Assembly (NCBI GenBank): GCA_043750125.1
Contig: JAYVCD010000316.1
Location: 1 to 26,340, forward strand
Source: Archangiaceae bacterium
Lineage (GTDB): Bacteria > Myxococcota > Myxococcia > Myxococcales > Myxococcaceae
Length of the DNA stretch: 26,340 bases
Reading direction: 5' to 3'
The notes beneath the pieces were generated by a model. That model worked only from the letters and a program-made list of their open reading frames with translations. It had not been told where the DNA came from and ran no database searches. The position numbers were made by a program, and so were the translations under genes. Positions 2,151 to 18,182 of the stretch are shown here, in pieces (position 1 is the stretch's first letter; the number at the start of each line of letters is the position of its first letter).

Positions 2151-2659
2151 AGTGACAGTTGGTACAGGTCGACCTGGTACAGCGTGGGGGTCCCGACCGA
2201 GGGTGCGTCCCAGGAGATGTTGGGGGTCAACCCGACCGACGCCTGGTTCACGAAAGCGTTGAGCCCGTTGATCCGCGGGTTGAGCACCGGGGTCACCAGG
2301 GGTGTCACCGGAGCACTGGTGAAGCTCGTCTGGGCGAGCTGTCGGGCCGGGACGTCGGCGAATGCGCCGGACAGCAACGAGTTGAGTCCGTTGGTCATGC
2401 TGAACGGGCCGGGGCTGAGGACCTTACCCAGCGTGAGCTGCCGCGGCGAATCGAACGGGCTTGTGGGCTCGAGCCTCAAGATCACAGAGGCCCGCCCGAC
2501 GTTCATCAACTGCATCGATCGCCGGCCGGCGCTGTCGAGCCAGGTGTCGCCGAAGTCGAGGGTCCTCGGCTCAGCGCGAAGGCTGCCTTCCGCCGAGACG
2601 AGGCTCGCGTCGTGGCAGGCACAAAGGACCCACAGCATAGAGATGACGAGATGGCGCAA
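1895..2659 (-). pseudogene. Mosaic lipoprotein/surface-protein relic (Ig-like choice-of-anchor-D-type start joined to a FN3-like fragment)
   Basis: TTG at 2659 with GGGAG upstream. MRHLVISMLWVLCAC resembles a lipoprotein signal, followed by EPRTLDFGDT...QLMNVGRA. It then switches abruptly to ...VGLTPNISWDAPSVGTPTLYQVDLYQL. Below ~2150 the frame is antisense to the kinase relic. Confidence 0.5.
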
Positions 2660-2959
2660 CCCTGCTCCCCGGCCGACCCGCTGCCGCCCGGACGTTACCA
2701 CCGCCGTCCCCATCGACGACCCGGGTCGCCTTTGCCGCAGCGCCGCCAATGGTGATCCCGGGCGAGTGGTACCGGGGCGCGCTCGCGCAGAAAGTCACTG
2801 CGCTCGAGGTCTCGGCGCGCAGCTCTGCATCAGGATCGCGGGGGACGCGAGCGTCGTCGGCAGTTTCATCGACCAGAACGACGGAGATTCTGAGCCGACC
2901 GCGACGATTCGCGGCTCGCCGCAACTGCGCAGACCGTGAACCACGCCAACTGCGAATAA

Positions 2960-3772
2960 TCATGGGGCGCTTTCGGTGCGCGGTGCTTCGCCGTCGAAGA
3001 TCACTCCGACCCGGTTGACGACCCTGGCGAACGGCGGCATCTGGAGCTCGGCGACCGTCATCCGGGTGACGACGAGGTTCGGATTCTGGCGAGCGTCGTG
3101 GTTCGGCGGCAGTGACTCGATCTCAGCGGCAACGAACGGACGCTCGATCGCTTCACGGCGCAAGAAGGTGCCCCGCTTGAAAAAAGGCGGGTAGTCGTTC
3201 CAGTTGATTCCCTTCTTGAAGAGCAGCTCGTGCATCTGCGAGTTGGTGCGATCGACGACTTCCGCGTGCGGGTAGTACGCGCGGGTCGCCATGCTCACCG
3301 AGTTCTTGGTCGCATCGAGCTCACGCCACAAAAAGACGTTGGCCGCTTCGTCTCGGGTAGGAACGGCCCAGACGCGGCAGTCGAAGAGCGCCGAGATGCC
3401 GGCCTTTTCAGGAATCGCAGCCACGAGGTGGGCATTGAAATAGGCCGTGGTCATCGAGGCGAGAATCGACGTGAGCTTTTGCACCCGGCTGTCGAGGAAA
3501 GGCGTCGCTTTGGGCGCGTCGTCGTACCAGGTGAGACTGATCTCGTCGGACTGGGTGTAGCCGACGAGCGCGGCCGTCTCTTCGACCAGGTGCTTGGTGG
3601 TGTCGACCATCAGCTGAGAGAGGCGGCGATCGAAAGGCCGGGCGAGCCCTTCGGTGAACCGGGAGAAGCGTTTCCCGTCAATGCGCGCGCAAATGGGCAG
3701 CCGGGGCATGAGCCGATGGCCGGCCTCGGCCATCTCGTACGCTTTCATCCGGTTGCCCAGGTCATCCTTCAT
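2960..3772 (-). CDS. thg1: tRNA(His) guanylyltransferase Thg1-like protein (TLP, 3'-5' polymerase)
   Basis: Motifs RMKAYE, ARIDGKRFSRFT, GYTQSDEISL, FDCRVW and GINWNDYP..FKRG. ATG at 3772 preceded by AAGGGAG. 270 aa. Confidence 0.92.
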   Translation of the reverse strand: MKDDLGNRMKAYEMAEAGHRLMPRLPICARIDGKRFSRFTEGLARPFDRRLSQLMVDTTKHLVEETAALVGYTQSDEISLTWYDDAPKATPFLDSRVQKLTSILASMTTAYFNAHLVAAIPEKAGISALFDCRVWAVPTRDEAANVFLWRELDATKNSVSMATRAYYPHAEVVDRTNSQMHELLFKKGINWNDYPPFFKRGTFLRREAIERPFVAAEIESLPPNHDARQNPNLVVTRMTVAELQMPPFARVVNRVGVIFDGEAPRTESAP

Positions 3773-3821
3773 GCTGCGGTGCTCCCTTGTGGGTCGGTTG
3801 GCTAGTATCACGCCGGCACTG

Positions 3822-4310
3822 GTGCAACCTCGTGACGCCCCTGACCGCGTCTTCCTCGACGCCAACGTTCTCTTCTCGGCAGCGCTGGGAGGCGAGAGCT
3901 TTTCAATGCTGTGGGACGCGAGGCGGCGGGGCCTGGTCACCTTCTGCACCAGTCCGCAGTGCATCGATGAGGCGCGGCGCAACATCGTGCGAAAGCGACC
4001 GGAAGCCACCGCGCGGCTCGAGGCCAGTCTGGTCGACGTGGACGTGGTGCCGGCGCCGGTGGCCCTGGTCGCCTGGGCGGCAGAAAAGCTTCCCGAAGAT
4101 GACGCCTGGGTTCTCGCTTCGGCCGTCGAGGCGAAGGTCGAGATTCTCCTGACCGGCAACACCAGGCACTTCGGTTGGATGATGACCCGCTCGGACTTAC
4201 CGATTCGCGTTCACACCCTTCGCGCCTATCTGGATCAACTGGTGGCGGTGGGGCGGCTGTCGCCCGAGGTCCGTACCACGATCGGGGTATTGCCCCGGAC
4301 AGTCGCCTGA
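3822..4310 (+). CDS. PIN domain protein (putative ribonuclease/TA-type toxin, PIN_3-like); start uncertain
   Basis: RVFLDANVLFSA, IDEARRN, EDDAWVLASA and LLTGNTRHF provide the acidic PIN active-site pattern. Confidence 0.82.
   Translation: MQPRDAPDRVFLDANVLFSAALGGESFSMLWDARRRGLVTFCTSPQCIDEARRNIVRKRPEATARLEASLVDVDVVPAPVALVAWAAEKLPEDDAWVLASAVEAKVEILLTGNTRHFGWMMTRSDLPIRVHTLRAYLDQLVAVGRLSPEVRTTIGVLPRTVA
4274..4289. promoter_or_regulatory. 7-2-7 inverted-repeat operator, copy 1 (TACCACG-AT-CGGGGTA), upstream of the O-methyltransferase
   Basis: 15/16 identical to the site at 6191-6206. Followed by TTGCCC (4290) and a candidate -10 CACGGT (4314-4319) 6 nt before ATG 4326. Confidence 0.7.
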
Positions 4311-4325
4311 CCGCACGGTGCGGCC

Positions 4326-5366
4326 ATGCTCAAGCCTTCGCGCCAGACTCCTTTCACCGGTGAGGCCCCCGTCGTCGACGATCGCCTTCTCTGGACTTTG
4401 TGGCTTTCGCCGACCTGGTTGCCGAGCGTCACCGCCGCCGACGAGCTGGGGCTGTTCGATTGTCTGGCCGAGAAAAAAGCGGCCACCGCTGAAGAGCTCG
4501 CCGCGGCGCTCGAGCTTGCGCCCCGTGCGATTCGCGCGTTGCTCGGCCTGCTGACTTCCCTCGGGCTGCTGAAGCAGTGCGCCGGCTCATTCGCGTTGAC
4601 CGAGTCGGCCCGGGCGTACCTCGTTTCCTCGAGCCCCTTCTATTGGGGCCCCGCCCTCGTTCCCCACAAAGTGGTTCCGATGTCTCACACCCAGATCCTC
4701 GAGGCGCTGCGGCGCGATAAGCCCGGCGCTTCGACCGACGCTGCCGCGATGTGGAAGGCGCCCGATTCGAACGTGTTGCGAATGTTCACCGCGGTGATGC
4801 ACGCGCATTCGCTGCCGACCGCCAGCGCGCTGGCCCGCAACCAAGCGTTCGTCGGCCTGCGGCGACTGCTCGATGTCGGAGGAGGCTCGGGCGCCTACTC
4901 GGTGTCCTTTGCGCTTCGCCACCCCGAGCTTGCGTGCACCGTGCTCGAGCTCCCCCAGATGACGGCCATCACCGACGAATACCTCGCCGCCACCCCCACC
5001 GGCGGCCGCGTGAAGTCGCACCCGGCCGACATGTTCAACGATGTCTGGCCGGGCGGCCATGACGGGGTCTTCTTCAACGACGTGTTTCACGACTGGCCGC
5101 TGCCGCAATGCCGGGCCCTCGCGGGCAAAGCCTTCGACGCGTTGCCCAGCGGAGGCTCGGTCTTCCTTCACGAGATGCTGCTCGACGAAGGGCTCGACGG
5201 CCCCCTGCCCGCCGCCGCCTATTCGATGATGATGCTCGTCGCTACCCCCGGGCGGCAGCTGTCGGGCAAAGAAGCCCTCGCCATTCTGGCCCAGGCCGGC
5301 TTCATCAACACCCGAATCACCCCCACCGTCGGGCACTACGCTTTGGTGTCGGGCCGAAAACCCTGA
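4326..5366 (+). CDS. SAM-dependent small-molecule O-methyltransferase (Methyltransf_2 with N-terminal dimerisation domain)
   Basis: N-terminal ELGLFDCL..ATAEELAAAL helix-turn-helix dimerisation domain. SAM motif LLDVGGGSG, plus ADMF and DVFHDW. 346 aa. Confidence 0.88.
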   Translation: MLKPSRQTPFTGEAPVVDDRLLWTLWLSPTWLPSVTAADELGLFDCLAEKKAATAEELAAALELAPRAIRALLGLLTSLGLLKQCAGSFALTESARAYLVSSSPFYWGPALVPHKVVPMSHTQILEALRRDKPGASTDAAAMWKAPDSNVLRMFTAVMHAHSLPTASALARNQAFVGLRRLLDVGGGSGAYSVSFALRHPELACTVLELPQMTAITDEYLAATPTGGRVKSHPADMFNDVWPGGHDGVFFNDVFHDWPLPQCRALAGKAFDALPSGGSVFLHEMLLDEGLDGPLPAAAYSMMMLVATPGRQLSGKEALAILAQAGFINTRITPTVGHYALVSGRKP

Positions 5367-6157
5367 ACCAGGTCAGCCTCCGAGGTCACCAGCGTGGCTC
5401 TGCCCGTGGCGCCGAACCGCGCGGCGAGCTCGACCCGGGAATGCACCCCCAGCCGCCTGAAGATTTTCTTCAGGTGCGAGCCAATCGTCGTTTCCGACAG
5501 CTCCAGCCGCTGAGCGACGTTGTTGTCACTCAACCCCAGCATCACCAGCCGAACAATCTGTCGTTCCCGCGCGCTCAAGGCCTTGAGCGCTTCTTGCTGC
5601 GGCATCATTGGGCGAAATCCGCACGCCTCTGCGAGCGCAATCGCTCCGCGCAGGGTGTCAGACGCGTATTCCGCCACTCCTTTGAGTGGGACGGCATGAC
5701 GGCTCATCGCCTCTTCCGTCGAGCAGCCCAGGCCAATCGAAATCCACCCGATCGGACCCTGCGCCGTGCCTTTGAGAAAAACGTGCAGCAGCGAGTGGAT
5801 TCCATTGGGCGTGAACAGCGTCCGCTTCAGCTCGATGTTCACCTGCTGAGCCGCGGACAGCTCCAACGGCGCGTACACTTCATCGCTCGGCACCCGCGCG
5901 CTCATCCCGTCGGAGGTCTTTTCAATGCGAGGCAGAAATCGCACGAAGAGCTGCTCGGTCAACGCACGGTGGCTCTCGGGTGAAGTCCCCGCCTGGGCCG
6001 CCAGCGAATCGCCGGGAGGGCAGGTCGCGACCGTCACGTATTGAGCGTCGGATGCCCGCCGCACCGCATCGGCCAGCTGCGATCGCCACTCGGCGGCATC
6101 CATCAGCTTCTGGGCCGCGACTTCGGCCACTCGCCACCACGTCAGAGGCTCAATCAA
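5336..6157 (-). CDS. LuxR-family transcriptional regulator with N-terminal non-REC (GAF/autoinducer-binding-like) domain
   Basis: C-terminal LSARERQIVRLVMLGLSDNNVAQRLELSETTIGSHLKKIFRRLGVHSRVEL is a LuxR HTH. The ~190-aa N-terminus lacks receiver motifs. TTG start is uncertain. Confidence 0.88.
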   Translation of the reverse strand: MIEPLTWWRVAEVAAQKLMDAAEWRSQLADAVRRASDAQYVTVATCPPGDSLAAQAGTSPESHRALTEQLFVRFLPRIEKTSDGMSARVPSDEVYAPLELSAAQQVNIELKRTLFTPNGIHSLLHVFLKGTAQGPIGWISIGLGCSTEEAMSRHAVPLKGVAEYASDTLRGAIALAEACGFRPMMPQQEALKALSARERQIVRLVMLGLSDNNVAQRLELSETTIGSHLKKIFRRLGVHSRVELAARFGATGRATLVTSEADLVQGFRPDTKA

Positions 6158-6190
6158 GATTGGTCAATGCTCACGCGCGCTTAGAACAGA

Positions 6191-6206
6191 TACCACGTTC
6201 GGGGTA
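6191..6206. promoter_or_regulatory. 7-2-7 inverted-repeat operator, copy 2 (TACCACG-TT-CGGGGTA), in the luxR/cheA divergent intergenic region
   Basis: Imperfect palindrome extended by a flanking A/T pair. Candidate -10 CAAATT at 6231-6236 has the same spacing as in copy 1. Confidence 0.72.
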
Positions 6207-6261
6207 TTTCGCCACAGAGGCGGTTCTCCCCAAATTCTCGGTGTCCGCCCCGGCGGATACC

Positions 6262-7785
6262 ATGAGCTTTGACGAACTGGCTGCCGATTTTGCGCATGAA
6301 GCACTGAGGTTGATCGCCACGCTCGAAGCGGCGCTGCTCCGGCTGGAATCGTTGGAAGCCCCCGAGGGAGCCGCCGAACAGCTCGAAGCGCTTCGGGTGC
6401 TGCACACCCTCAAGGGCAACTCAGGGCTGCTCGGCGCCGAGCTGCTGAGCACCACCTTGCATCGGCTCGAGACCTTGATCGAGACCGGCCGCAGCCAGGT
6501 CCCGGTGCTGCTGGACTCGATCGGTGCGATCCGCCACGAGGTTCGCCGCATCGCTTCGGGCGGCCCCGCGAGCCAGCCGTCGGCCGAGCTGATCGCTTTG
6601 GACCTGGCGCTCGCGACCGGAAAGGTCAGCCCGACGACTTCCGTCGCCTTCGATCTTTCGCCCGAAGTGACCGTGCCCCAGCATCGCCTCGACGCGCTGG
6701 TCGCCGCCGCCGGAGATCTGATCATCCACAACGCGCAGTTGCAGCGGGGCATCTCGCGCGGAGCGTCGCTGGCTCAAATCTACGAACGGGCCGACCGGTT
6801 CGATTCGGCGGTGAAGTTGATGCACGGCCTGGTGTTGACGGTGCGCACCGTGCCCGTCGGCCAGCTGCTCTCGAAGTGCGAACGGCTGGTGCGCGACGAA
6901 GCGCGCCGCCAGAACAAGCAGGTGCAGTTGGTGCTCGACGGAGAGACCACCGAGGCCGACAAGGCCGTGCTCGACCTGATCGCCGGGGTGCTTTCCCATC
7001 TGGTTCGAAATGCAATCGTCCACGGCCTCGAGTCACCCGACGAACGGGTCGCCGCCGGAAAATCACCCGAAGGGCGGCTCACCCTTTCGGCCCACTCGGC
7101 CGGCGATCGCGTTCTCCTGTTCGTCGAGGATGACGGGCGGGGGCTCGACCGGGAAGCGATCGCCGCGCGGGCGACCTCGATGGGGCTCGACCCGCTCAAC
7201 GACGCCGAAGAGCTGATCTTCGAGCCCCGCCTGTCGACCGCCCACCTCACCGAGGCTGCCGGTCGCGGAGTGGGGCTCGATGCAGTGCGCCGCACGGTCC
7301 TCTCGATTGGAGGCACCGTCGGAGTCTGGAGTCTGCCCGGCCTGGGCACCCGCATCACCCTCACGCTTCCGAGCAGCATCGCGGTGCAGCGGGCGGTGCT
7401 GTGCGAAATTTCGGGCGAGACGTTCGCACTGCCGCTGACCGCGATCCTCGAGACGGTTCGCCTCGACCGCACCCGAATTCGCTGGCTCGGGCGCGGCCGA
7501 GCCCTCGAACACCGCGGGGCCCTGGTGCCTTTGATCGACACCTGCGCTGAGCTCGGCGCGAGCAAGGACACCGCGGCGTATGCGGTCTTCTTGAGCTCGA
7601 CCAGCGTGGCCGCTTTGCCGGTCGACGCGCTGCTCGATCAGCAGGACTTCGTCTTTCACTCGCTCGAAAAACGCATCGCCGGCAACGCTCCCATCTCGGG
7701 CGCCGCGCTGCTTTCCGACGGCCGGGTCGTCTTGCGGCTCAACCCCGAGCCCCTCGTTCACTCTGCCTCGCAGGCGCGGGCATGA
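6262..7785 (+). CDS. cheA: Chemotaxis histidine kinase CheA (Hpt, dimerisation, HATPase, CheW; no P2, no REC)
   Basis: LHTLKGNS (Hpt His), HLVRNAIVHG (N box), EDDGRG (G1), GRGVGLDAV (G2), and a C-terminal CheW-like domain. ATG at 6262. Confidence 0.93.
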   Translation: MSFDELAADFAHEALRLIATLEAALLRLESLEAPEGAAEQLEALRVLHTLKGNSGLLGAELLSTTLHRLETLIETGRSQVPVLLDSIGAIRHEVRRIASGGPASQPSAELIALDLALATGKVSPTTSVAFDLSPEVTVPQHRLDALVAAAGDLIIHNAQLQRGISRGASLAQIYERADRFDSAVKLMHGLVLTVRTVPVGQLLSKCERLVRDEARRQNKQVQLVLDGETTEADKAVLDLIAGVLSHLVRNAIVHGLESPDERVAAGKSPEGRLTLSAHSAGDRVLLFVEDDGRGLDREAIAARATSMGLDPLNDAEELIFEPRLSTAHLTEAAGRGVGLDAVRRTVLSIGGTVGVWSLPGLGTRITLTLPSSIAVQRAVLCEISGETFALPLTAILETVRLDRTRIRWLGRGRALEHRGALVPLIDTCAELGASKDTAAYAVFLSSTSVAALPVDALLDQQDFVFHSLEKRIAGNAPISGAALLSDGRVVLRLNPEPLVHSASQARA

Positions 7786-8312
7786 ACGACCTGGCCAGTG
7801 ATCCCAAACGGCTGGTGCGCTTCGTCGAAGGCACCGCCTCGCTCGCGCACGCCCCCCGCGTGGCCCCCGAAGAGACGCGTTGCCTGGTCGCGTTCGGTCT
7901 GGCCGACGAGCTGTTCGCGCTGCCAGTCACCACCGTGCGCGAGGTCGTCCGGGTGGTTCACCTGACCCGCATTCCCCAAGCGCCCGAGCACGTGCGCGGG
8001 GTTCAGGGGCTTCGGGGCCTGGTGTTGCCGGTGCTCGAGGTCCGCACCCGGCTGGGCCTGCCCCCGCTGGTAATCACCGCCGCTTCGCGAATCATCGTCG
8101 TCGAGGCCTGGAACCGGCTGATCGGCCTGCTCGTCGACTCGGTGCAGCGGGTGGTGCGGCTTCCGGTGTCCCTGATTCAGCCGCCTCCGCGCGACATCGT
8201 CGGGCGACTGTCCGGCCACGTCAGCGCCGTCGCCGACACCGGGTGGGGAACCGCGCTGGTGCTCGATGTCGATCAACTGCTTCTTCTTTCCCAGCTTCCC
8301 GAGAGTCCATGA
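7782..8312 (+). CDS. cheW: Chemotaxis coupling protein CheW
   Basis: [48 protein letters not shown] overlap with cheA. Confidence 0.92.
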
Positions 8313-10165
8313 TTTCGATGAGCGTAAAGCGCCGGCTGTGGATCGGTTTCCTCGCCAACCTGATGGTCTTGCCGGTGATGCTGGTCACGATGGGCTGGTC
8401 GATTGGGCAGGCAGATCAGATCATGGGCGATTCGGCCCGGCTGACCCGCGCGGCGCAGCAGCTCACGACGCTCTATTCGACCCTGGTCTCGCTGCGGGGC
8501 CCCGCCCGGCCCGGGCGAGAGCCGCTGAACCAGGCGCGCATCGCGTTGGTTTCGATGCACGACGAGCTCACCGGCACGCTGTCGACGCTCGGCTCAGACG
8601 CCCGGCGCATCAACGAAGACCTCACCGTCGAGCCGCTGGAAGCCGACGCGCTGGTCCTCGCCGAGCGTCACACCCTCGAGCTGCTCAAGGCGGTCTGGGC
8701 CAGCTACGAGGCGAATCAACGGCGGGTCGACGAGGTGAAGTCGCGCACCTTCACCGTCTCGTTTTCTGCGGCGCTGGCGGCGGTGATGTTGGCGGTGCTG
8801 GCCAGCGTCTTGATCTCGCGCTCGATCATCGGGCCCCTTCAGACTCTGACCCACCACGCGCTGCGCATCGCCGAGGGGGACTTGCGCGACGCGGTGACGG
8901 TGCCCAGCGATGCCGAGCTGGCGGCGCTCGGCAATGCCTTCAACCGAATGCGCGAACGGCTGGCCTCACTGATCCACCAGCTGTCGGTGCATGCCTCCGA
9001 GGTGTCCGCGACCGCCAAGGCGGTCAAGATCAACACCTCGGAAATGGCAGAGGGCGTCGAGCAACAAAGCTCAGCCACCGAAGAGACGTCGTCGGCAATG
9101 GAAGAGATCGCCGCGCAAATTCAAAGCGTCAGTCGAAACACCTCTGAGCTGGCCGACGACGGAGCGCGCGCCTCGGTCACCGCGAAGGAAATCGGCCAGG
9201 CCGCCGGTCAGCTTTCCGCCGCCGCCAAAGAGCTAGAGTCTGCGATCGAACGATCGGTTCGGTCGGTCGAATCGGTCTCGCAGCGGGCCGAGTCGTCTTC
9301 GAAGAACCTGAGCGAGGCCGATCGTTTCGGGCGCGACATCAGCAAGGAAGCCGAGTCCAGCGGCACCGCGCTCGATGAATCGATTCGGAAAATCGAAATC
9401 GTCGGAGCCGGGTCCCGAGACGCCAGTCGCGCGATCGAGCTGCTGGGCACCCGCTCACGACAGGTGCGGTCCATCGTTCAGACGATGGCGGACATCGCCG
9501 ATCAAACCAACCTGCTCGCGCTCAACGCCGCGATCGAAGCCGCGCGCGCAGGGGAAAGCGGCCGCGGCTTCGCGGTGGTCGCCGAAGAGGTCCGGAAGCT
9601 GGCCGAGCGCGCCGTGGTCGCGGCGAAAGAAGTGGCCGAGCTGTCCGAGGGAATTCACCAGCAGACCGAGTCGACCCTCGTGCTGGCTCGCGAGAATGCC
9701 ACCCGCACCGAGGAAGGCGTGCGGTTGATCGCGGAGACCGGCAGCCGGCTGCGGCGGGTGCTTACGTCGATCGACAAGTCGAGCGCCCTGCTGACTCAGG
9801 TCTCATCGGCCGTCGGCGATCAATCAGAGCTCGCGGTGTTGCTGAAGCAGGAAATGGTGAAGCTGCGAGACCTTTCGGCAGTGCTCTCGCGCAACGCCCA
9901 GACCCAGGCCGAAGCGTCCACCGGCGTCGTGAGCGCGGTCGAACGCATGAGCGCGCGGACCCGGCAGGTCGCCGACGCCACCGTTCAGGTGCGGGTGGGA
10001 GGCGAGCAGGTGGTGAAGGCGGTCGAAAACATCAGCGTCGTCGCCCGGCAGAACCACGACGCGGTGACGCGGGTGACCACTGCGATGGAAACGATGGTGG
10101 TCCGGGTCGAAGAGCTGAAGCTGAGCATGAGCGCGATCAAGACCGCCGGGCCGACGAGCGCATGA
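8309..10165 (+). CDS. Methyl-accepting chemotaxis protein (2 TM, periplasmic sensor, HAMP, long signalling domain)
   Basis: Two hydrophobic segments and a HAMP domain ([23 protein letters not shown]). Hairpin tip [43 protein letters not shown] overlap with cheW. Confidence 0.93.
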
Positions 10166-10968
10166 GAATTGCCCGCGCAGCCTCGTCCATCGACCCCGAC
10201 CGCCTCGACCCGGCCTGCCTCACGGCATTCGGCCAGCTGGTCCGCGATCGACTCGGGCTTCAGACCGCTCGCAACCGGGAACTGCTCGCCCGGAAGCTGT
10301 GGTCGACCGCCGCAGATGCCGGCCTGCTGGAAACCGACCCTTCTTCCTGGGTCGAACAGCTGGTCCGGTCCTCTCAACACTCGCGGTGCTGGGCGGCGAT
10401 GGCCGACGCAGTCCCCAACCACGAGACGTCATTCTTCCGCGATGTCGAGCAGCTGCAGGGCGCGATCGCGGGTCTGAAGCCAGGCCCCGGCCCGGCCCGG
10501 CTGTTGTCTGTCGGCTGCTCGTCCGGCGAAGAGGTCTTCAGCCTCGTGATGTTGCTGCACGAACAGCTCGACGCGCTGTGGGGCAGGCAGGCCGAGGTGT
10601 GGGGGGTCGATGTGAGCCCCGCGGCGCTGACCCGCGCCCGGCGAGCCTGGTATTCGGCGGGCGCGGTAGATCGCGCCGGGGTGGGCCCGGCGGGGTGGCA
10701 CCACCGGTTTCTGCGTGCAGCCGAAGGCGGCTGGAACGTGCGGGACCTGGTGCGCGCGCGGACCCGGTTTCACGAAGCCAACCTCGCCTTCCCCGAGAGC
10801 TTGGCGGTGTTGGGCCAGTTCGATGTCGTCCTGTGCCGCAACGTGCTGATCCACTTCGAGCCGCAGGCGGCGCGTCTGGCCGTGACGACCCTTCGTTCAC
10901 TGGTGCGGCCGGGCGGAGCTCTTCTGCTCGGCGCGGCCGAAGCCCCCCTGCTGGGGGTCGGACTCTGA
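10162..10968 (+). CDS. cheR: Chemotaxis protein methyltransferase CheR
   Basis: [31 protein letters not shown] and [15 protein letters not shown] overlap with mcp. Confidence 0.9.
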
Positions 10969-12017
10969 AGATCCGGGTCGCCCTCGTCGACGACTCGTCC
11001 TTCGCCCGCCGGGCGATGGCTCGCGTTCTCTCTGAGGCCAATGACATTCAAATCGTCGGCTTCGCCTCGAACGGCGAAGAGGCGCTCACGCTGTGCGACG
11101 CCCAGCACCCCGACGTGATGCTGCTCGATCTCTCGATGCCGGTGCTCGACGGCAGAGCCACGCTGGCGAGGCTTCGCTCACGCCCCAACCCACCTCAGGT
11201 GGTGGTCGTCAGCGCCGGGGCCCAGGCCGGCGCCGAGCAGACGCTCGAAGCGCTCGAGCACGGCGCCTTCGACTTCGTCGACAAGAGCAGCGTTCCCCAG
11301 ATGCAGATGCACGAGCTGGGCTCAGAGCTGTTGGGCAAGGTCCGCGCGGCGGCCGAAGCCAGGGTGCGGCCCCACGCGTTGCGGCGGGCTGCGTCGGGCC
11401 CGTCGTGGCGCCAGGCAGTTCCGGGCCTCGTCGTCATCGGGGCGTCGACCGGCGGGCCGCTCGCGCTGAAGACCGTGCTCAGCCAGCTGCCCGCGAATTT
11501 CCCTACGCCGGTGGTGGTCGCGCAACACATCGCCCCGACCTACGTGCCGGCGCTGACCAGGCGTTTGGGCGAAGCGTGCGCCTTGCCCGTGCAGATGGCT
11601 CGATGGAATGCACCGCTCGAGCCTGGAATTCACGTGCTGTCGGCGACCGCAAACACCGAAGTTCGAATTCGGGCCGGAACTCTGGAGCTTGCGAGGAAAG
11701 CCCCCGGTCGCAGCCTGCACGTGCCCACCATCGATGTGTTGTTCGAGACCGCCGCGCAAGCGTGTCCCGGAGCGTGGGGCGTGCTGTTGACCGGCATGGG
11801 TCGGGACGGCGCGGCGGGTCTGTTGGCGCTGCGGGAACAAGGCGGCCTGACCGTCGCTCAAGACGCGCGGACTTGCGCCGTCTACGGAATGCCGCGCGCC
11901 GCAGACGAGCTGAATGCCGCCTGCGCTGTGCTGCCCGTGCATGCGATTGGCACCTACCTGTGCGAGGCCGTTGCCCGCGCGACCGCCCGTGTCGTTGGAC
12001 TGCAGTTCCACCCGTAG
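10965..12017 (+). CDS. cheB: Chemotaxis response regulator/methylesterase CheB (REC + methylesterase), apparent CTG start
   Basis: [10 protein letters not shown] and LLDLSMP (REC). GASTGG, AQHI and LTGMGRDG give the Ser-His-Asp triad. CTG overlaps the cheR TGA (CTGA). Confidence 0.9.
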   Translation: MKIRVALVDDSSFARRAMARVLSEANDIQIVGFASNGEEALTLCDAQHPDVMLLDLSMPVLDGRATLARLRSRPNPPQVVVVSAGAQAGAEQTLEALEHGAFDFVDKSSVPQMQMHELGSELLGKVRAAAEARVRPHALRRAASGPSWRQAVPGLVVIGASTGGPLALKTVLSQLPANFPTPVVVAQHIAPTYVPALTRRLGEACALPVQMARWNAPLEPGIHVLSATANTEVRIRAGTLELARKAPGRSLHVPTIDVLFETAAQACPGAWGVLLTGMGRDGAAGLLALREQGGLTVAQDARTCAVYGMPRAADELNAACAVLPVHAIGTYLCEAVARATARVVGLQFHP

Positions 12018-12031
12018 AGGAGGTGTTCTTG

Positions 12032-12505
12032 ATGCTTGGACAATGGACCGCGCCGTTCGTTGCTGTGGTGTTGCTGGCTGGGTCAGCCGAGGCAGAAGAT
12101 CCGCTCGAGGCAGCGGCTGCGCGCGCAGGGTGTCCGGCGGGCAGACATCACCGCACCGCCCAGCAAGTGGTGGACGATTTCCACGCCACCCTCGCGGCGG
12201 GAAACCTTCACCAGGCCGTGATCTGCAACTACGCCGTCGACGCCAAGGTGCTGACGCCCGGTGGCATCGCTTCGGGACAAGCAGCGATCGAAGCGGGCCT
12301 GGCGGCGTACGGGATGTTGTTTGGAACTGCGATTCCCACCGTGCTGGTCAATGAATCGACCGTCGACGTGGTCTTGATCATCTACTCGTTGGTGACCCCG
12401 TTCGCGTCCATCCCCGATGGCTCAGACACCTATGTCGTCCGGCACGGCTTGATTCGCACCCAGGCGGTTCACGCCACCATCGTGTTCGGTGCCCCGTCAC
12501 CGTGA
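12032..12505 (+). CDS. Exported NTF2-like/SnoaL-like domain protein
   Basis: AGGAGG RBS at 12018-12023. Signal-peptide-like N-terminus ending in AEA. QVVDDFHATLAAGN..NYAVDAKVLTP..G..AI and DTYVVRHGLIRTQ fit the SnoaL_2 pattern. 157 aa. Confidence 0.72.
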   Translation: MLGQWTAPFVAVVLLAGSAEAEDPLEAAAARAGCPAGRHHRTAQQVVDDFHATLAAGNLHQAVICNYAVDAKVLTPGGIASGQAAIEAGLAAYGMLFGTAIPTVLVNESTVDVVLIIYSLVTPFASIPDGSDTYVVRHGLIRTQAVHATIVFGAPSP

Positions 12506-12912
12506 GCTCAGACAAGAAAATCCTGGTGGTAGAGGACTCGGAGTTCGTTCGGCAGATCTACCGCGTGGCCTTCCGAAAAATCGGAGGCTACGAGGTGATT
12601 CACGCCAACAACGGCGCCGAAGGACTGGCCGCGCTCGCCGCGCAACCGCGGTTCGAGCTGGCGATCGTCGACATCAACATGCCGGTGATGAACGGGTTGG
12701 CCTTCATCGAACAACTGCGACGCGCCCCCCGGCACCACGACACCCGGGTTCTGGTCGCGACCACCGAGAGCGCGGACGGAAAGATTCGCGACCTCGTCGC
12801 GCGCTCGGGCATCACCTATCTGCGCAAGCCCTTTAGCCTCGAACGGTTGATCGAGGCTCTGCGGGCGCTGCTTTCTCTGGCCCCGATGTCCATTCCCCCC
12901 GGCACTCCATGA
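12502..12912 (+). CDS. Single-domain response regulator (CheY-like)
   Basis: KILVVEDS, IVDINMPVMNG, VATT and LRKPF. GTGA overlap with the upstream gene. Confidence 0.9.
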   Translation: MSSDKKILVVEDSEFVRQIYRVAFRKIGGYEVIHANNGAEGLAALAAQPRFELAIVDINMPVMNGLAFIEQLRRAPRHHDTRVLVATTESADGKIRDLVARSGITYLRKPFSLERLIEALRALLSLAPMSIPPGTP

Positions 12913-14630
12913 TCGTCACCGAAGCCCACTTCGACGTTTCTCAACTGCACGCCCGCGCTGTCAGGCCGAACACCGTCGGGTCTCTGATTGCTGCTCGACT
13001 GCACTGCCTTGGAGTCTGCCAGGCGTTCGGTCTGGTCGGAGGAGCCGTCGCTCCCCTGGCTGCCGCGCTTCAGCAGACGCCGATCGAGGTCTTTCACTTT
13101 CGCCACGAAAGCGGCGCGGCCTTTGCGGCGACCGAGGCCTACTTCGCCACGGCGCGACCGACCGTGGTCTTCGCCACCAGCGGTCCGGGCATCACCAACG
13201 CACTCACGGGCTTGATGGCCGCCCGGTGGGAAGGGGCGAAGGTCATTCTGTTGTCGGGCTCTACCTCGTCCGCGCTGCGAGGACGCGGGGCGTGCCAGGA
13301 GACCAACGGGTTGACGATGCCGGCCGGAGTCTTCGAGAAGGGGCCGCTGTTCGATTACGCGGTCCAAATCGAAACGGCAGACGAGCTGCCTGCGGTGCTG
13401 CGGCGAATCGAGCAGGGGTTGGCTGGGCCCGGGGGCTTCGTGGCGCATCTGAGCCTCTCGACCGTGCTGCAGACCCAGAAGACTTCCAACATTCAGGAAA
13501 CCCGAGGCGACCTGCACGCTTTGGCCGTCTGTGCTTCGGACCCTGACCTGTCTCACTGCGCGCAACTGCTCGAGAGCGGACCTGCGGCCCTCTGGGTCGG
13601 CTTCGGTGCGCGGCGGGCTTCGGTCGCGGTGCGCCGCCTCGCCGAACGGCTGGGCTGCGCGGTGATGAGCACTCCGCGCGGGAAGGGAATCTTTCCCGAG
13701 ACCCACCCGCTGTACCTCGGGGTCACCGGCCTGGGTGGGCACGCGCGGGTCGAGCAGTACCTGAGCGCAAATCCTCCCGACCATGTGCTGGTGCTCGGCA
13801 CGCGGCTGGGCGAGCCCTCTTCATTCTGGCGGTCGGAGCTCGTGCCGCGAGAGAGCTTCATTCACGTCGACCTCGATCGCAGCGTGCCGGGAGCGGCGTA
13901 CCCCCTGGCTCGGACCCTGGCGGTCCAATCGGACATCGGCCCCTTCGTCGAGGGGGTCCTCAGTCGTCTGCGTGCACCGGCGCGGACGCCCCGGCCCCCG
14001 CCAACACCCCCGGTCGCCTCGTCCAGCCGTCCAGGGCCGATTCGAGCCCACTTCTTGATGGAAACGATTCAGACCGAAGTGATTCGCAACACCGACGCGG
14101 TGGTGCTGACCGAGTCGGGCAATGCCTTCGCCTGGGGAAACAATCTGCTGAAGTTCGACGAGCCCCATCGGTACCGGGTGAGTGTCGGCTTCGGTTCGAT
14201 GGGACACGCCACCACCGGAGTCGTCGGTTGCGCGCTCGCCCGACGCGGGAAGGCGGTCGCGATCGTCGGCGACGGCGCGATGTTGATGAACAACGAAATC
14301 AGCACTGCGGTGCAATACGGCGCCAACGCGGTCTGGGTGGTGCTCAACGATTCCCAGTACGGAATGGTGGAGCACGGAATGCGAATGCAGGGCTTCCGCC
14401 CGGTCGAAACCCAAATGCCTTTGACGGACTTCGTCGCCATCGCGCAGGCGATGGGCGCCGATGGCACCGCGGTGCACGATGAGGCGGCGCTCGCCCCGGC
14501 CTTGCGCAAAGCGATGGCGGCGCGCGGTCCCTTCGTGCTCGACGTGTACGTCGACAAGACCGAGCCCGGACCGTGGATGCGCAGAATTCAGAACTTGATC
14601 CTTCAGGGCGCGCAAGGAGCCGCCTCATGA
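12909..14630 (+). CDS. Thiamine diphosphate-dependent enzyme, acetolactate-synthase fold, ScyA/acyloin-synthase-like
   Basis: RHESGAAFAA (catalytic Glu), TSGPGITN and the ThDP motif GDGAMLM...VLND..YGM. No ilvN/ilvC nearby; coupled instead to a KAS III-like gene. Confidence 0.85.
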   Translation: MIVTEAHFDVSQLHARAVRPNTVGSLIAARLHCLGVCQAFGLVGGAVAPLAAALQQTPIEVFHFRHESGAAFAATEAYFATARPTVVFATSGPGITNALTGLMAARWEGAKVILLSGSTSSALRGRGACQETNGLTMPAGVFEKGPLFDYAVQIETADELPAVLRRIEQGLAGPGGFVAHLSLSTVLQTQKTSNIQETRGDLHALAVCASDPDLSHCAQLLESGPAALWVGFGARRASVAVRRLAERLGCAVMSTPRGKGIFPETHPLYLGVTGLGGHARVEQYLSANPPDHVLVLGTRLGEPSSFWRSELVPRESFIHVDLDRSVPGAAYPLARTLAVQSDIGPFVEGVLSRLRAPARTPRPPPTPPVASSSRPGPIRAHFLMETIQTEVIRNTDAVVLTESGNAFAWGNNLLKFDEPHRYRVSVGFGSMGHATTGVVGCALARRGKAVAIVGDGAMLMNNEISTAVQYGANAVWVVLNDSQYGMVEHGMRMQGFRPVETQMPLTDFVAIAQAMGADGTAVHDEAALAPALRKAMAARGPFVLDVYVDKTEPGPWMRRIQNLILQGAQGAAS

Positions 14631-15721
14631 GCGGCGCGGGGATGAGCGCGCTTGCGGTCCGATTCCCGGCGCGCCGGGTGGGGCCCGAGTATTGGAAAGA
14701 AAAATACCCCCACCTGCTCAGCGAGGCAGCCCATCGGTCGTTGTCCAGAGTGTGGGCGGCGCCAACCGCCGAATCTTCTGCGGCAGTGTTCGACGCCGCG
14801 GCAGCTCCGTACATTTCGGACCCGTTTCGGGGAGGCAAGGATCGCTGGATTCTCGGCGAGGGCGAGGATTCCAGAACTTTGGAATTGGAAGCGGCCCGGG
14901 AAGCGCTCGCGGCGTCGGGGTGGAAAGCCTCAGAAATCGGGCTGATGATCGTCACTTCCTTTCTGCCGGAAAATGTCGCGGTGGGAAACGCCGCCTGGCT
15001 GGCAGGCGAGCTGCGCCTGGGCGGTGAAGCCTTCAACCTCGAGTGTGCGTGCGCGGGTTCGATGGTTGCCTTTCAGTTGGCTTGCCAGTTGGTCCGCAGC
15101 GGCGCGTACGCGCGCGTGCTGGTGGTGACCTCGTGTACCTATTCGCGAATCGTCGAAGACAGCGACACCTTGTCGTGGTCCGTCGGCGACGGCGCGACTG
15201 CGTTCGTCGTCGAGAAGACCGAAGAGGGCCACGGTTGGCTGGGGGGAAAGACGATGCACACCGCTCAAACCTGCGGCGTGATGTACACCGGCCCGGTCGT
15301 GGGGGCCGAAGGCGCGGCGGTGCTGCGCATGAAGCCCGGTCTGCGCCCAGCGGCGGTGCTGCGCGAGACGGCCGAGCCCATTTTGCGCACCTGCGTCGCT
15401 GGAGCGCTCGACGCGGCCGGCTTGCCCCTCGAGGCGATCGACTTCTTCATCACCACCACTCCGACCGCCTGGTACTCGAAGTTCTGTGGACAGGTGCTCG
15501 GGTATCCCGAGAGCAAGACCGTCAACCTCCACCCCCACATCAGCAACGTGGGCCCGGTGATGGTCCCCGCCAGCCTTCACCATGCTGCCAGCCTTCGCCT
15601 GATCAAGCCGGGCGACAAAGTATTGCTCTACGCGATTGGCAGCGAGGCTCAGGCGTCGGCGGCGATCGTCAAGTGGGGGAAGGTCGCGTTGGGTCCTTCG
15701 CGCGCTACCCCGGTCGCGTGA
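14627..15721 (+). CDS. 3-oxoacyl-ACP synthase III (FabH)-like condensing enzyme/acyltransferase with non-canonical active site
   Basis: AFNLECACAG (catalytic Cys), VGDGATAFVV and ISNVGP (Asn). The FabH HQAN motif is replaced by TTPTAWY. AAGGAG RBS and ATGA overlap with the ThDP gene. Confidence 0.85.
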   Translation: MSGAGMSALAVRFPARRVGPEYWKEKYPHLLSEAAHRSLSRVWAAPTAESSAAVFDAAAAPYISDPFRGGKDRWILGEGEDSRTLELEAAREALAASGWKASEIGLMIVTSFLPENVAVGNAAWLAGELRLGGEAFNLECACAGSMVAFQLACQLVRSGAYARVLVVTSCTYSRIVEDSDTLSWSVGDGATAFVVEKTEEGHGWLGGKTMHTAQTCGVMYTGPVVGAEGAAVLRMKPGLRPAAVLRETAEPILRTCVAGALDAAGLPLEAIDFFITTTPTAWYSKFCGQVLGYPESKTVNLHPHISNVGPVMVPASLHHAASLRLIKPGDKVLLYAIGSEAQASAAIVKWGKVALGPSRATPVA

Positions 15722-15805: not shown

Positions 15806-16209
15806 ATGAGAACGATCTGGGGCGTTGACGTCTGGGCCTGTCACTGAGTGGCAGGCGGGAACGTCATTGCCCCTGGGCTCGGCTGCGAACGATGTCTGGT
15901 CTGTGGGCGACGACGGAATCGCAACCCACTGGAACGGGACGGCGTGGTCCAGCGCAGCGAGCGGAACGCCAAACAACCTGCTCGCGGTCTGGGGGAGCGG
16001 CACGATCGCGTGGGCAGTCGGCGACCGTGGCGACATCCTTCGATGGAATGGGACGGCCTTTGCGGCGGCGACAACCGGCAGCACGAAGACCCTTCATGGC
16101 GCGTGGGGGAGCGGACAGAACGACATCTGGGTAGTGGGGCGTGTGGAGCCGTGGGCCGAACGAGACCTGGGTCGTCGGAGAAGGCGGCACAATTCTTCGC
16201 GGGCCGTGA
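15806..16209 (+). pseudogene. Relic of a beta-propeller-type WGS..DVWAVG repeat protein
   Basis: Repeat fragments occur in different frames: RTIWGVDVWA (15806), NDVWSVGDDG..HWNG / LAVWGSG..AWAVGDRG..RWNG / HGAWGSGQNDIWVVG, then VWSRGPNETWVVGEGGTILRGP* (16141-16209). Confidence 0.7.
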
Positions 16210-16345
16210 TGAAGCGCTCGAACGGCTTGAGCGCGTAGACGGCGCGGGGATATTCCTTCGTCTGCCCGGTGACCAAGCAAGGCCACGACGGGGCCCGCGC
16301 AGGTGTCGTTTGCGCACCGAGGATCGCGGCCGTATACACGCCCGC

Positions 16346-17473
16346 ATGTTCGAACACGCTGCCGCGACACTCGAGAAAGGCTTCCGCCGGTCCGCGATGT
16401 GGGCCTACGCGCTGAACCAGTCGCGCGCGAAGGTTTTGATGGACCCGGTCTATCTGGGGGTCGCCAGGCTGCTGCTGCGCGACACGCCGGGTCCGAGCAA
16501 GAAGCTGCAGAACGAAACGTTCGCGACCAACTTGTTTTTTCCGTATCGCGCGTTGTCGCGAAAGCTGCAGTACTTCATCGAAGACTGGGACTTCAGCGAG
16601 GCGCGGCCCGAGCTGCTCACGCCCCGCCAGCGCCAGATGATGCACACCGTCGCCCTCGGCGAGACGAGTGGAGCGGCGGTCGCGGACGGGTTCTTGCGCG
16701 CGTTTCGCACCCACCCCGAGCTCGCGGCTTTCTTCGGCACCTGGTTCACCGAGGAGCTCAACCACTTCATCGGCTACCACATCTACCTGCGTCAGATGGG
16801 CGAGGCGTGGCCCGCAGCGCGCGGTCTGGAAGTCGCCGAGACCGAGGTGATTCCGTACGCGAGCGACCTGATGGAAGTGGCCGCATGCAACATGTACCAG
16901 GAGCTGCTCGGGTTCCTCGTCTACCGCTCATTCGCCAAGCAGGTGAAGGATCCGTTTCTCGCGAAGATGCTGGCCCAGTTCGCGAAGGACGAGCTGCGGC
17001 ACTTCCGCTTCTACCAGGACGTGGTGGCGCGACACATTCAGGACAACCCTGCGTTCCGCGCGGTGGTGCTCAAGGTCTTTCTCAAAGCCACCTCTCCGTA
17101 CAACCAGATCTCGGGCGGCCCTTCCAACGTGCTCGACCACCTCGCGATGGGCGCGTTCTATTTCCGCAAACCGGAATTCGACTTCTTCCTTCGTGAGAAC
17201 GAGTACCTGTTCGGGACCCAGTTGAGCGGCTTCTGGAACTGGTACTTCAAAGACGTGGCAGCCCCGTGCGCGTTCTGCGCGAAGAGCACCCACCAGTGCG
17301 CGTGCGAGCACTACGAGGACGGCGAGCCGGCTGCGGTCAAGAACCCTCAATGGTGGAAGAGGGTCACCTCGACGCGCGCCCATGATCCCCGCATCGACAT
17401 CGACCTGTGGGCCCAGGCGATTCTCGCGCAGCGCGGCGAGAACCGGAACCGCTCGACCGCTGCGGTGGCCTGA
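16346..17473 (+). CDS. Ferritin-like diiron-carboxylate protein (acyl-ACP desaturase/AurF-like superfamily) with Cys-rich tail
   Basis: Ligand pattern LGE..EELNH..YQE..KDELRH. C-terminal CAFC..HQCAC. ATG at 16346. 375 aa. Confidence 0.8.
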   Translation: MFEHAAATLEKGFRRSAMWAYALNQSRAKVLMDPVYLGVARLLLRDTPGPSKKLQNETFATNLFFPYRALSRKLQYFIEDWDFSEARPELLTPRQRQMMHTVALGETSGAAVADGFLRAFRTHPELAAFFGTWFTEELNHFIGYHIYLRQMGEAWPAARGLEVAETEVIPYASDLMEVAACNMYQELLGFLVYRSFAKQVKDPFLAKMLAQFAKDELRHFRFYQDVVARHIQDNPAFRAVVLKVFLKATSPYNQISGGPSNVLDHLAMGAFYFRKPEFDFFLRENEYLFGTQLSGFWNWYFKDVAAPCAFCAKSTHQCACEHYEDGEPAAVKNPQWWKRVTSTRAHDPRIDIDLWAQAILAQRGENRNRSTAAVA

Positions 17474-17670: not shown

Positions 17671-18182
17671 CGCTGGGCTTGGGGCTGACGTTCAACGCCA
17701 GCGGGCACCGGCCCGCTTGTCTTCTCGCTCGCCGCTGCGCCCTCTGGAGGGTCGGTCACTTCGACCGGGAGTTATCTATCGGGCTCGACCTTCCCCGCGC
17801 TCGATCAGGTGCAGGTACAGAGCTGCTCGCGCAGAGGTGAACGAGAATCGGTCTGGACACCCGCAGGTTGGCAGCGCTCAACAGCTCGATCGAAACCGTC
17901 GCTGCGGAACAGGGTTTCCTCGATGTTCCGGCGGGACTTCGGTTCGATTCGGCATCTCAGTCGGTCGAATGGACGCCGCTTCGCGAGCAGGTCGGAAGTC
18001 ACGACCTGGTGCTGTACGCCGACACGTCCACGGGAAGATTGACCCAGCCGATTCACCTCGAAGTCAGCTGCACTCCGGTCAAGCTCAGAGTGGGCTGTGG
18101 CTGCTCGAACGACCCTGCGGCGGCGGTCGGATGTTTGCTCGCGCTGCTCGGCTTGGCGAGGAAGCGCCGGTCGTCACCGTAG
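17671..18182 (+). pseudogene. 3' relic of a large Ig-like-repeat surface protein with MYXO-CTERM-type sorting signal
   Basis: LTFNASG / GTGPLVFSLAAAPSGGSVTSTGSY..DQVQV (frameshifted), then VPAGLRFD..VEWTP, ending GCGCSNDPAAAVGCLLALLGLARKRR*. Confidence 0.65.

Follow-up and report, generated by a model that had tools for sequence, protein, structure and literature searches.

A candidate signalling locus in myxobacteria: a conserved operon of chemosensory genes and predicted acyloin-forming enzymes beside a LuxR-family regulator

Myxobacteria are a classic example of social behaviour among bacteria, yet only a few of the diffusible signals by which they address one another have been identified, and the majority of their numerous chemosensory systems lack an assigned ligand or output. 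The locus described here raises the question of whether one such chemosensory (Che) pathway is tied to a small molecule made by enzymes of its own operon. It lies in a metagenome-assembled genome of an Archangiaceae bacterium (6.17 Mb, 460 contigs, 89 % complete), and the window analysed is the whole of contig C316, 26,340 bases with a G+C content of 62–69 %. Based on Pfam and NCBIfam profile searches of the window proteins, a nine-gene unit at 6262–15721 has the order cheA-cheW-mcp-cheR-cheB-SnoaL-cheY-ThDP-KAS III, in which mcp encodes a methyl-accepting chemotaxis protein (MCP), ThDP stands for a thiamine diphosphate-dependent enzyme and KAS III for an enzyme like β-ketoacyl-acyl carrier protein synthase III. 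A LuxR-family regulator gene and an O-methyltransferase (OMT) gene lie upstream. The parts are of known kinds, namely Che systems with accessory genes, furanolide synthases, LuxR solos and SnoaL-fold proteins, and the locus suggests a self-signalling system, or a metabolite system under signal control, that has not been described before. The reading adopted is that a diffusible compound is sensed by the LuxR protein at promoters marked by a palindromic box and by the MCP, with an adapting CheA/CheY output; it is put forward tentatively, at somewhat less than an even chance.

An earlier note on this DNA, made from the sequence alone, had described the genes from cheA to the KAS III-like gene as one unit, and the domain searches and the reading of the junctions agree with that. 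Its count of the junctions was also right. At seven of the eight, neighbouring genes overlap by 4 nucleotides (nt), the overlap being ATGA at five junctions, GTGA at another and CTGA at cheR/cheB; at the eighth, between cheB and the SnoaL gene, a TAG stop is followed by 14 nt containing AGGAGG and then by ATG. The unit thus reads as one operon with translational coupling. The LuxR-type gene is divergent, as the note had it, the GerE-domain gene at 5336–6157 on the minus strand standing beside cheA on the plus strand with a 104-nt spacer between them, and luxR and the OMT gene are convergent with a 28-nt overlap.

The arrangement is conserved. Order-wide searches covered 363 genomes, in each of which only the best four to seven first-look candidates were scored, and relatives among these genomes are not independent. 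With a cut-off of E≤1e-70 for the CheA subfamily (no paralogue in the genome of the window, which has nine CheA homologues in all including that of the unit, does better than 1e-52), CheA orthologues are present in 14 of the 363 genomes, and a ThDP or KAS module is present in all 14. LuxR orthologues (E≤1e-20) were found in 16 genomes, 13 of them CheA-positive. KAS orthologues (E≤1e-40) were found in 15 of the 363 and, in a phylum-wide sample of 401 genomes, in 21; the KAS query had no match in the 21 genomes of genus g12 or in most other genera of the family. Genome G271 enters these counts only.

Single contigs of three genomes (G006, G267 and G272) carry LuxR and then, divergently, cheA-cheW-mcp-cheR-cheB-SnoaL-cheY-ThDP-KAS. 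On a single contig of G039 the same gene set is found with cheY after KAS, and on one of G350 cheY follows KAS and SnoaL stands beside LuxR. Pieces cut by contig ends in G002, G252, G270, G275 and G353 match these arrangements; in G352 the contig ends just upstream of the ThDP gene, and the genome has no match to the CheA subfamily at E≤1e-70. The single contigs include some of 532 kb and 131 kb, therefore the conserved arrangement is not an assembly artefact. The check for conserved linkage that the earlier note had proposed is thus answered by recurrence in five genomes (G006, G039, G267, G272 and G350) and by a variant in a sixth (G361).

This variant, from a third family, has LuxR, a divergent cheY-cheA-cheW-mcp-cheR-cheB-SnoaL and then ThDP, glyoxalase/vicinal oxygen chelate (VOC; L062:13130-13597) and KAS III genes. 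Its signalling genes are orthologous to those of the window (CheA 48 % and SnoaL 42 % identity); its ThDP enzyme is acetolactate synthase-like and non-orthologous (27 % identity; acolac_lg, 338 bits), with no ScyA-type family among the 25 best matches listed, and its KAS III, 28 % identical to that of the window, retains the catalytic His discussed below. Other genes also vary around the core. A class I/II aminotransferase gene directly follows KAS in G272 (L042:3513-4712), and a second KAS III gene directly follows the core in G350 (L036:3233-4390); together with the glyoxalase/VOC gene, this is tailoring variation of the kind seen in biosynthetic clusters.

That the genes stand together by mere chance of history, through common descent and without any functional link, is hardly credible in view of these comparisons. 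Most carriers do belong to one order and are not independent, and a ThDP tree of 24 rows, in which seven of the 21 inner branches are supported and at least three label changes are forced, resolves neither a single origin nor the number of origins. Against this, cheY and SnoaL have moved while the set has remained intact across three families at 36–57 % identity, seven of the eight junctions are start/stop overlaps of 4 nt, and an operator is common to separate promoters.

The compound made by the locus is addressed by its two enzymes. The ThDP enzyme (12909–14630, plus strand) has three thiamine pyrophosphate domains and probably belongs to the ScyA/CybE-like acyloin-forming clade. Its NCBIfam scores are 746 bits for the ScyA-related family (cut-off 1000) and 702 bits for ScyA (cut-off 1020), with the next family at 194. 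Among named proteins it comes closest to ScyA and ScyA-related proteins of myxobacteria and cyanobacteria, at 53–58 % identity, and it is 47–49 % identical to the ThDP enzymes of cyanobacterial clusters that combine phenylalanine ammonia-lyase, 4-coumarate-CoA ligase, ThDP, KAS and short-chain dehydrogenase/reductase (SDR) genes; BbmA and CsmA, the nearest proteins with a solved structure, are far more distant (E 1e-55). The KAS III-like enzyme (14627–15721, plus strand; ACP_syn_III and ACP_syn_III_C), encoded by a gene that overlaps the ThDP gene by 4 nt, is of the furanolide-synthase (CybF-like) type. It is distant from FabH (E 2.7e-15), and in the alignment of the two the nucleophilic Cys and the Asn are kept and the catalytic His is replaced by Thr. 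Across 29 members of this KAS family, Cys and Asn are each present in 29/29 and the FabH His in 0/29. The enzyme is 39–43 % identical to the KAS proteins of three cyanobacterial furanolide-type loci (L023, L026 and L028), two of which (L023 and L026), recovered by the KAS query, encode an aromatic ammonia-lyase, a CoA ligase, a ThDP enzyme, KAS and SDR.

In the cyanobacterin/furanolide set (cybB/C/E/F), the ammonia-lyase and the CoA ligase supply coumaroyl-CoA, CybE converts two 2-oxo acids to an acyloin, and CybF carries out O-acylation and ring closure (PMC13288894 and PMC12395478, in the parts drawn on here). In Plesiocystis pacifica only a cybE/cybF homologue pair is co-localised, for which a role in deoxyenhygrolide synthesis is proposed, and the lyase and ligase are absent there, according to the sections of that paper available (PMC8777810). 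The pair in the window is read as CybE/CybF-like because homologous pairs sit in clusters of cyb-like composition; likewise the pattern of Cys and Asn without His may be a CybF hallmark by way of homologues in cyb-like clusters, not of CybF itself. The product is probably of the furanolide type, a butenolide; furanolides absorb at 330–360 nm (PMC12395478). The acyloin chemistry proposed in the earlier note for a ThDP enzyme with a FabH-like partner is therefore retained in a narrower form, the furanolide (CybE/CybF) type being favoured among the chemistries named there.

Signalling genes were also seen beside cyanobacterial pairs. Giant Ser/Thr-kinase-AAA-GAF-HATPase sensors adjoin ThDP-KAS in two loci (L026:12136-17553 and L028:13355-18826), and a dCache-PAS hybrid histidine kinase is encoded near ThDP-KAS in a third (L023:16497-19676); a signalling neighbour of the pair may recur outside the myxobacteria too.

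Between cheB and cheY lies the gene for a secreted SnoaL/NTF2-fold protein of 157 amino acids (aa; 12032–12505, plus strand), which matches the solved SnoaL-like structure 7e85 (PDB) at E 4.5e-7. The window protein has no Pfam match of its own; SnoaL_2 is matched by 14 of its 17 orthologues. An AlphaFold2 (AF2) model with a mean confidence (pLDDT) of 81.7, and above 90 over residues 40–150, superimposes on 7e85 with a template-modelling (TM) score of 0.90, ketosteroid isomerases coming next, so that the fold of the model and the profile matches of the orthologues both place the protein in the SnoaL/NTF2-like superfamily. All 17 orthologues have, by eye, a positive stretch, a hydrophobic stretch and an Ala-X-Ala-type site, with a Cys after the cleavage-like site in 17/17 and a second invariant Cys about 30 residues on. 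With such a signal-peptide-like N-terminus the protein is most likely periplasmic. The invariant residues are C34, C65, Y67, D129, D132 and H147, and Q144 is nearly invariant; the polar ones (Y67, D129, D132 and H147) suggest an enzyme more than a passive binder, and the protein could finish, inactivate or carry the compound outside the cytoplasm.

In the Myxococcota this protein is the constant partner of ThDP-KAS, including at loci without Che genes; no SnoaL gene was found beside the cyanobacterial ThDP-KAS pairs examined. It is thus an unrecognised constant partner of myxobacterial cybE/cybF-like genes, with a bearing on the finishing of, or tolerance to, compounds of the enhygrolide type. 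The earlier note had placed SnoaL within the Che unit, where the gene does stand, but a role first of all as a Che accessory or as a binding protein docking to the MCP is rejected, since the protein accompanies ThDP-KAS where there is no MCP. Prediction of a complex of two MCP periplasmic domains with the mature SnoaL protein scored 0.07 and 0.04, well short of the mark of 0.32, which is evidence neither way.

The regulator (5336–6157, minus strand) combines a GAF-like N-terminal domain with a GerE helix-turn-helix (HTH; aa 193–245, PF00196, E 8.8e-16). With its AF2 model (pLDDT 75.7) as the query, the top 20 Foldseek matches are quorum-sensing receptors (SdiA, RhlR, CviR, TraR, LasR and QscR; E 2e-7 to 6e-5), with full-length TM scores of only 0.40–0.47 and a target-normalized score (TMt) of 0.68 for the LasR ligand domain. 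VIA-align matched residues 2–180 to GAF domains at Z ~13, those of phytochrome and NifA ranking first. When a profile built from six orthologues is compared with solved structures, nearly all matches fall in the HTH (NarL, RhlR, CviR and SdiA), apart from one weak LasR row (6mwz, E 0.0023, profile positions 122–236). Judged from the model, this appears to be a one-component regulator of the ligand-binding type with the build of quorum-sensing receptors, which by sequence does not belong to the autoinducer-binding family. Three GAF-LuxR paralogues, two of them in tandem, were also seen in G276 (L060:9089-9784; L061:9737-11486); their surroundings contain no Che, SnoaL, ThDP or KAS gene.

An 18-nt palindromic box with the consensus TACCACG(A/T)TCGGGGTATT is present upstream of both cheA and the OMT gene. 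Box 1, TACCACGATCGGGGTATT (4274–4291), falls within the final codons of a PIN-domain open reading frame (ORF) that ends at 4310; 34 nt separate it from the OMT ATG, and it is self-complementary at 14 of 16 positions. Box 2, TACCACGTTCGGGGTATT (6191–6208; 12 of 16 positions), lies in the luxR-cheA spacer, 53 nt before the cheA ATG and, on the opposite strand, 33 nt away from the start of luxR. The 6.17-Mb assembly contains exactly two exact copies, these two; with up to three mismatches there are four further matches, and the total of six equals the six obtained with a reversed-pattern control, hence no excess.

Comparisons support the box as a conserved element. A related box stands at the same place in all five orthologous luxR-cheA spacers read, with the core ACGTTCG-N-GGTAT. 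The congeners G001 and G002 keep both boxes, the cheA box identical and the OMT box one or two letters off, and in them the gene upstream of the OMT gene differs from that of the window while the box before OMT is still there. In G350 and G351 the spacer separating luxR from SnoaL has diverged except for an 18-nt island of identity, which includes the box core. With the Che operon, OMT and SnoaL all preceded by it, the box looks like a single operator common to promoters of three kinds, and the shared upstream box of OMT and cheA reported in the earlier note is borne out by two exact copies, their dyad symmetry and their conservation. Spacing of the sigma-54 type was not seen around the box by eye. 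It seems fairly likely, given where the box lies, that LuxR binds it.

The Che pathway itself is complete, all six of its proteins (CheA, CheW, MCP, CheR, CheB and CheY) matching Pfam or NCBIfam families. CheA (6262–7785, plus strand, as are all genes of the unit) has Hpt, dimerisation, HATPase_c and CheW-like domains and no receiver, and an HTLKG histidine motif can be read in its sequence. It is followed by cheW (7782–8312; Pfam CheW, E 5.1e-31), which overlaps it through ATGA, and, after mcp, by cheR (10162–10968; Pfam CheR, E 3.6e-31) and by cheB (10965–12017), which encodes a receiver (REC) and a methylesterase domain (CheB_methylest, E 1.9e-51; PRK12555 in NCBIfam, 315 bits). The apparent start of cheB is a CTG that overlaps the cheR stop (CTGA), assigned because no in-frame ATG, GTG or TTG is near; in orthologous loci a spacer of about 80–110 nt separates cheR and cheB instead of an overlap. 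CheY (12502–12912) consists of a receiver only (Response_reg, E 2.6e-20), in whose sequence the acidic pocket and the equivalents of D57, T87 and K109 are present. We take the HTLKG His of CheA and an Asp of the CheY receiver to be the phospho-accepting residues.

The receptor (8309–10165) is a transmembrane MCP with HAMP and MCPsignal domains. Two hydrophobic segments, at about aa 9–29 and 146–170, enclose a periplasmic sensor of about 118 aa (aa 30–147). In five ScyA-type loci the sensor is 22–31 % identical to that of the window, and the signalling domain is 56–60 % identical in six loci including that of G361.

In the mechanism proposed, the ThDP enzyme would join two 2-oxo acids to an acyloin, as CybE does, and the KAS III-like enzyme would acylate the acyloin with an acyl-CoA and close the butenolide ring, as CybF does. 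The OMT would methylate a phenol of the product in this genus, and the SnoaL/ketosteroid-isomerase-like protein would act on or bind the compound outside the cytoplasm. The compound would be diffusible and would bind the GAF-like domain of LuxR, a dimer of which, on the box, would activate the operon and OMT in an autoinduction loop. The co-expressed MCP would read the periplasmic level of the compound and, with adaptation by CheR and CheB, would drive CheA and CheY toward a behavioural output. That the ligand of LuxR is the product or a precursor of it is an evenly balanced proposition; that the MCP senses the product is rather doubtful. The fullest form of the reading, in which a self-made furanolide is both an autoinducer through GAF-LuxR and a chemoeffector of the Che pathway of the same operon, as a cue for autotaxis or aggregation by which cells would gauge their numbers and also direct their movement, must be called unlikely as a whole.

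One genome bears on the diffusibility of the compound. G351 (12.5 Mb, eight contigs) has kept LuxR, the box and SnoaL; genome-wide it has no KAS at 1e-40 and no CheA at 1e-70, and there are no Che, ThDP or KAS genes near the retained ones. It would look like a remnant for reception only or for defence only, and this hints at a diffusible ligand. A receiver-only genome in G351 and a signal 'dialect' in G361 would both fit a compound that is autoinducer and chemoeffector at once.

A number of observations weigh against this reading. With respect to the chemistry, the ThDP enzyme scores under both NCBIfam cut-offs, no ammonia-lyase or CoA ligase gene was found in the window or in the myxobacterial flanks read, and the single PF00221 gene of the genome is on another contig and may encode a histidine ammonia-lyase. 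The furanolides characterised to date, in the parts of two papers drawn on here, are antibiotics, cytotoxins or algicides, not signals (PMC12395478, PMC8777810). With respect to sensing, the N-terminal domain of LuxR has no Autoind_bind (PF03472) match in Pfam at E≤0.01 and by VIA-align has a generic GAF fold, the link between LuxR and the box is one of position, and the MCP sensor falls in no recognised ligand-binding family. The sensor of G361 is 16 % identical to that of the window, against the 22–31 % for the five ScyA-type loci; that this divergence tracks the swap of enzymes would be a hint from a single genome, which counts against its use as an argument. Finally, the SnoaL-ThDP-KAS trio occurs with no Che or LuxR gene within at least 11 kb upstream in G169 and G179, complete genomes of about 13 Mb from the same family, and, with no Che genes beside it, in five genomes from further families of the Myxococcota (G393, G466, G470, G473 and G480). 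The compound therefore has a role independent of the Che pathway.

Four more genomes of other Myxococcota families have the pair or KAS alone, and cyanobacterial and Polyangium/Sorangium records have the pair or KAS without Che genes. From this asymmetry of co-occurrence it follows that dependence runs one way only: the Che subfamily needs the module, which for its part can do without the Che pathway. The asymmetry fits self-sensing and control of synthesis by the Che pathway alike; G351 and the presence of CheR and CheB lean slightly to self-sensing.

The reverse wiring is about as likely as self-sensing. The MCP would then sense an outside cue (prey, a surface or nutrients), and phosphorylated CheY would tune the ThDP and KAS enzymes or LuxR; LuxR would be a pathway-specific activator, SnoaL would serve for periplasmic finishing or self-protection, and an antibiotic furanolide would be made on demand. 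Taken by itself, this account is possible though on the improbable side. The cheY gene always adjoins those of the enzymes, preceding ThDP in family f1 and following KAS in family f4, a position that leans to control of synthesis and away from self-sensing, and a Che subfamily never found without the ThDP/KAS module, while the module occurs without Che, is what would be expected of a dedicated regulator. Chemosensory outputs other than motility are known from Che3 and Che7 of Myxococcus. CheR/CheB adaptation, however, gives transient responses and is a poor fit to sustained production of a metabolite, no CheY-binding module is visible in the enzymes, and, with the Che genes and their supposed target in one transcript, control would have to be post-translational; LuxR, box and SnoaL without a synthase in G351 better fit the sensing of an outside compound. 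The antibiotic activity of furanolides also speaks for such control (PMC12395478, in the part drawn on here). If the Che pathway does control synthesis, the locus is a chemoreceptor-gated natural-product cluster, useful for switching on silent clusters.

The trio standing alone in many Myxococcota, and lineage-specific tailoring genes at the edges of the core (OMT here, the aminotransferase in G272 and the second KAS III in G350), would also suit an allelochemical cluster with co-expressed taxis. The furanolide would be a weapon, LuxR a cluster-situated regulator answering to the product or to stress, and SnoaL a periplasmic immunity protein; the Che pathway would steer motility by an unrelated ligand and have only its timing in common with the cluster. 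This is quite improbable, as the CheA subfamily is accompanied by a ThDP/KAS module in 14 of 14 positives among the 363 genomes, the association survives replacement of the enzymes by non-orthologues in G361, and biosynthetic genes lie between cheB and cheY within the operon.

The preferred reading, a self-made compound sensed by LuxR and the MCP, can be set beside several known systems. The cyanobacterin pair CybE/CybF and the enhygrolide/deoxyenhygrolide pairs are, like the pair of the window, adjacent ThDP and KAS III-like genes (PMC8777810, PMC12395478, PMC13288894, as far as these were consulted), and in the available part of the P. pacifica account, as in the window, only the two core genes are co-localised (PMC8777810). 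In contrast to furanolide clusters, the window has no ammonia-lyase, CoA ligase or SDR and has a secreted SnoaL-fold partner instead, and its pair is embedded in a Che operon with a GAF-LuxR. For furanolides this raises a possible physiological role beyond toxicity.

Among chemosensory systems, the nearest are Che3 of Myxococcus xanthus, with CrdA as its output, and Che7, with CheY7-Cpc7 and a desaturase gene in its cluster, neither of them concerned with motility. As in these, a full CheA/W/MCP/R/B/Y set in a non-flagellated myxobacterium is clustered with accessory non-Che genes; the accessory genes of the window differ in that they encode the two enzymes of a small-molecule synthase pair, an NTF2-fold protein that is secreted, and a LuxR of the ligand type with its own operator, and no output partner is recognisable in the locus.

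The LuxR solos PluR and PauR sense ketosynthase-derived signals, photopyrones and dialkylresorcinols respectively. As with them, the window combines a KAS III-type synthase with an adjacent LuxR protein whose ligand domain has the same general fold, and an acyl-homoserine-lactone signature is absent; the window differs in an N-terminal domain that fails Autoind_bind, in a putative signal that would be an acyloin-derived butenolide and in the predicted co-transcription of a whole Che pathway with the synthase. The gamma-butyrolactone and butenolide autoregulators of Streptomyces, among them avenolide, are associated with AfsA-type synthases and TetR-family receptors. There, too, a butenolide-type molecule is encoded beside a presumed receptor-regulator; in the window the synthase is ThDP plus KAS III-like rather than AfsA, the receptor GAF-LuxR rather than TetR, and a membrane chemoreceptor pathway is added. 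In scytonemin synthesis ScyA is a ThDP acyloin synthase and later steps are thought to be periplasmic. The ScyA models score highest for the window enzyme, and a cytoplasmic coupling step with a secreted partner is likewise seen; in the window, by contrast, the scores are below the cut-offs, there is no ScyB, ScyC or other scy gene, and the partner is KAS III-like.

The earlier note knew of no described system of this architecture, and the literature search, in which the key myxobacterial chemosensory survey was not covered, yielded no paper in which a Che pathway shares a transcript with a pair of genes for small-molecule synthesis. Nor did it yield one on a SnoaL partner of myxobacterial cybE/cybF, the homologue table in the supplement of PMC8777810 being outside its coverage. 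Thiamine, ketoacyl, LuxR, SnoaL and acetolactate are all unmentioned in PMC6194562, as are SnoaL, regulators and chemotaxis in the part of the text of PMC8777810 available. As the locus ties one Che subfamily to one pathway, one regulator and one operator, it provides a testable hypothesis of ligand, receptor and output for an orphan system.

Of the remaining genes, OMT (4326–5366, plus strand) encodes a small-molecule O-methyltransferase of the plant type, with Methyltransf_2 (PF00891, E 3.4e-29) and an N-terminal dimerisation domain (PF08100, E 2e-11). Orthologues 73–75 % identical are present in the congeners G001 and G002, where the order OMT-LuxR-cheA is kept and CheA is 80–82 % identical; at E≤1e-20 there is none in G003, G004, G006, G267, G272 or G039. 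By these comparisons OMT is a predicted member of the regulon in this genus only, a genus-level addition, and it was rejected as a part of the core. Accordingly, of the methylated product proposed in the earlier note, the methyltransferase is real, but its place in the regulon does not extend beyond the genus.

Downstream of the unit, 126 nt past KAS, starts an ORF (15848–17473, plus strand) with a C-terminal ferritin-like di-iron domain resembling acyl-ACP desaturases (FA_desaturase_2, E 2.5e-6; Rubrerythrin; DesA2 in PDB, E 1.6e-5). No homologue is present in any of the related loci read, and as it is not conserved it was rejected as a core part; its membership of the unit is uncertain, and it is possibly a lineage-specific tailoring gene or oxygenase acting on the product, or unrelated. 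Between 15500 and 17800 a scan for sigma-70 promoters found no promoter-like site, and a terminator scan found one terminator-like hairpin (17700–17717) no better than those in shuffled sequences. The window contains no Rfam family and no tRNA gene. Five DNA data sets from two studies are listed as containing the locus, and no RNA data set is.

The flanks of the window hold several further genes. Upstream of OMT are a PIN-domain ORF (about 3846–4310, plus strand; PIN_3, E 4.7e-10), in which box 1 lies, and a Thg1-like gene of the tRNA-His guanylyltransferase family (2963–3790, minus strand; E 5e-30). A Ser/Thr protein kinase gene (1215–2939, plus strand) has an in-frame TAG at 1650–1652, in the middle of the kinase domain, and before about 1500 its translation is rich in arginine and seems to follow the wrong frame; either the gene is a pseudogene or the assembly contains an error here. 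Two ORFs, at 17717–19261 and 25000–26262, are without a family match, and between them, at 19258–24933, are envelope and metabolic genes encoding an SLT-domain protein, an OmpA protein with thrombospondin type 3 repeats, a class II fumarase (minus strand) and an OprB-family porin.

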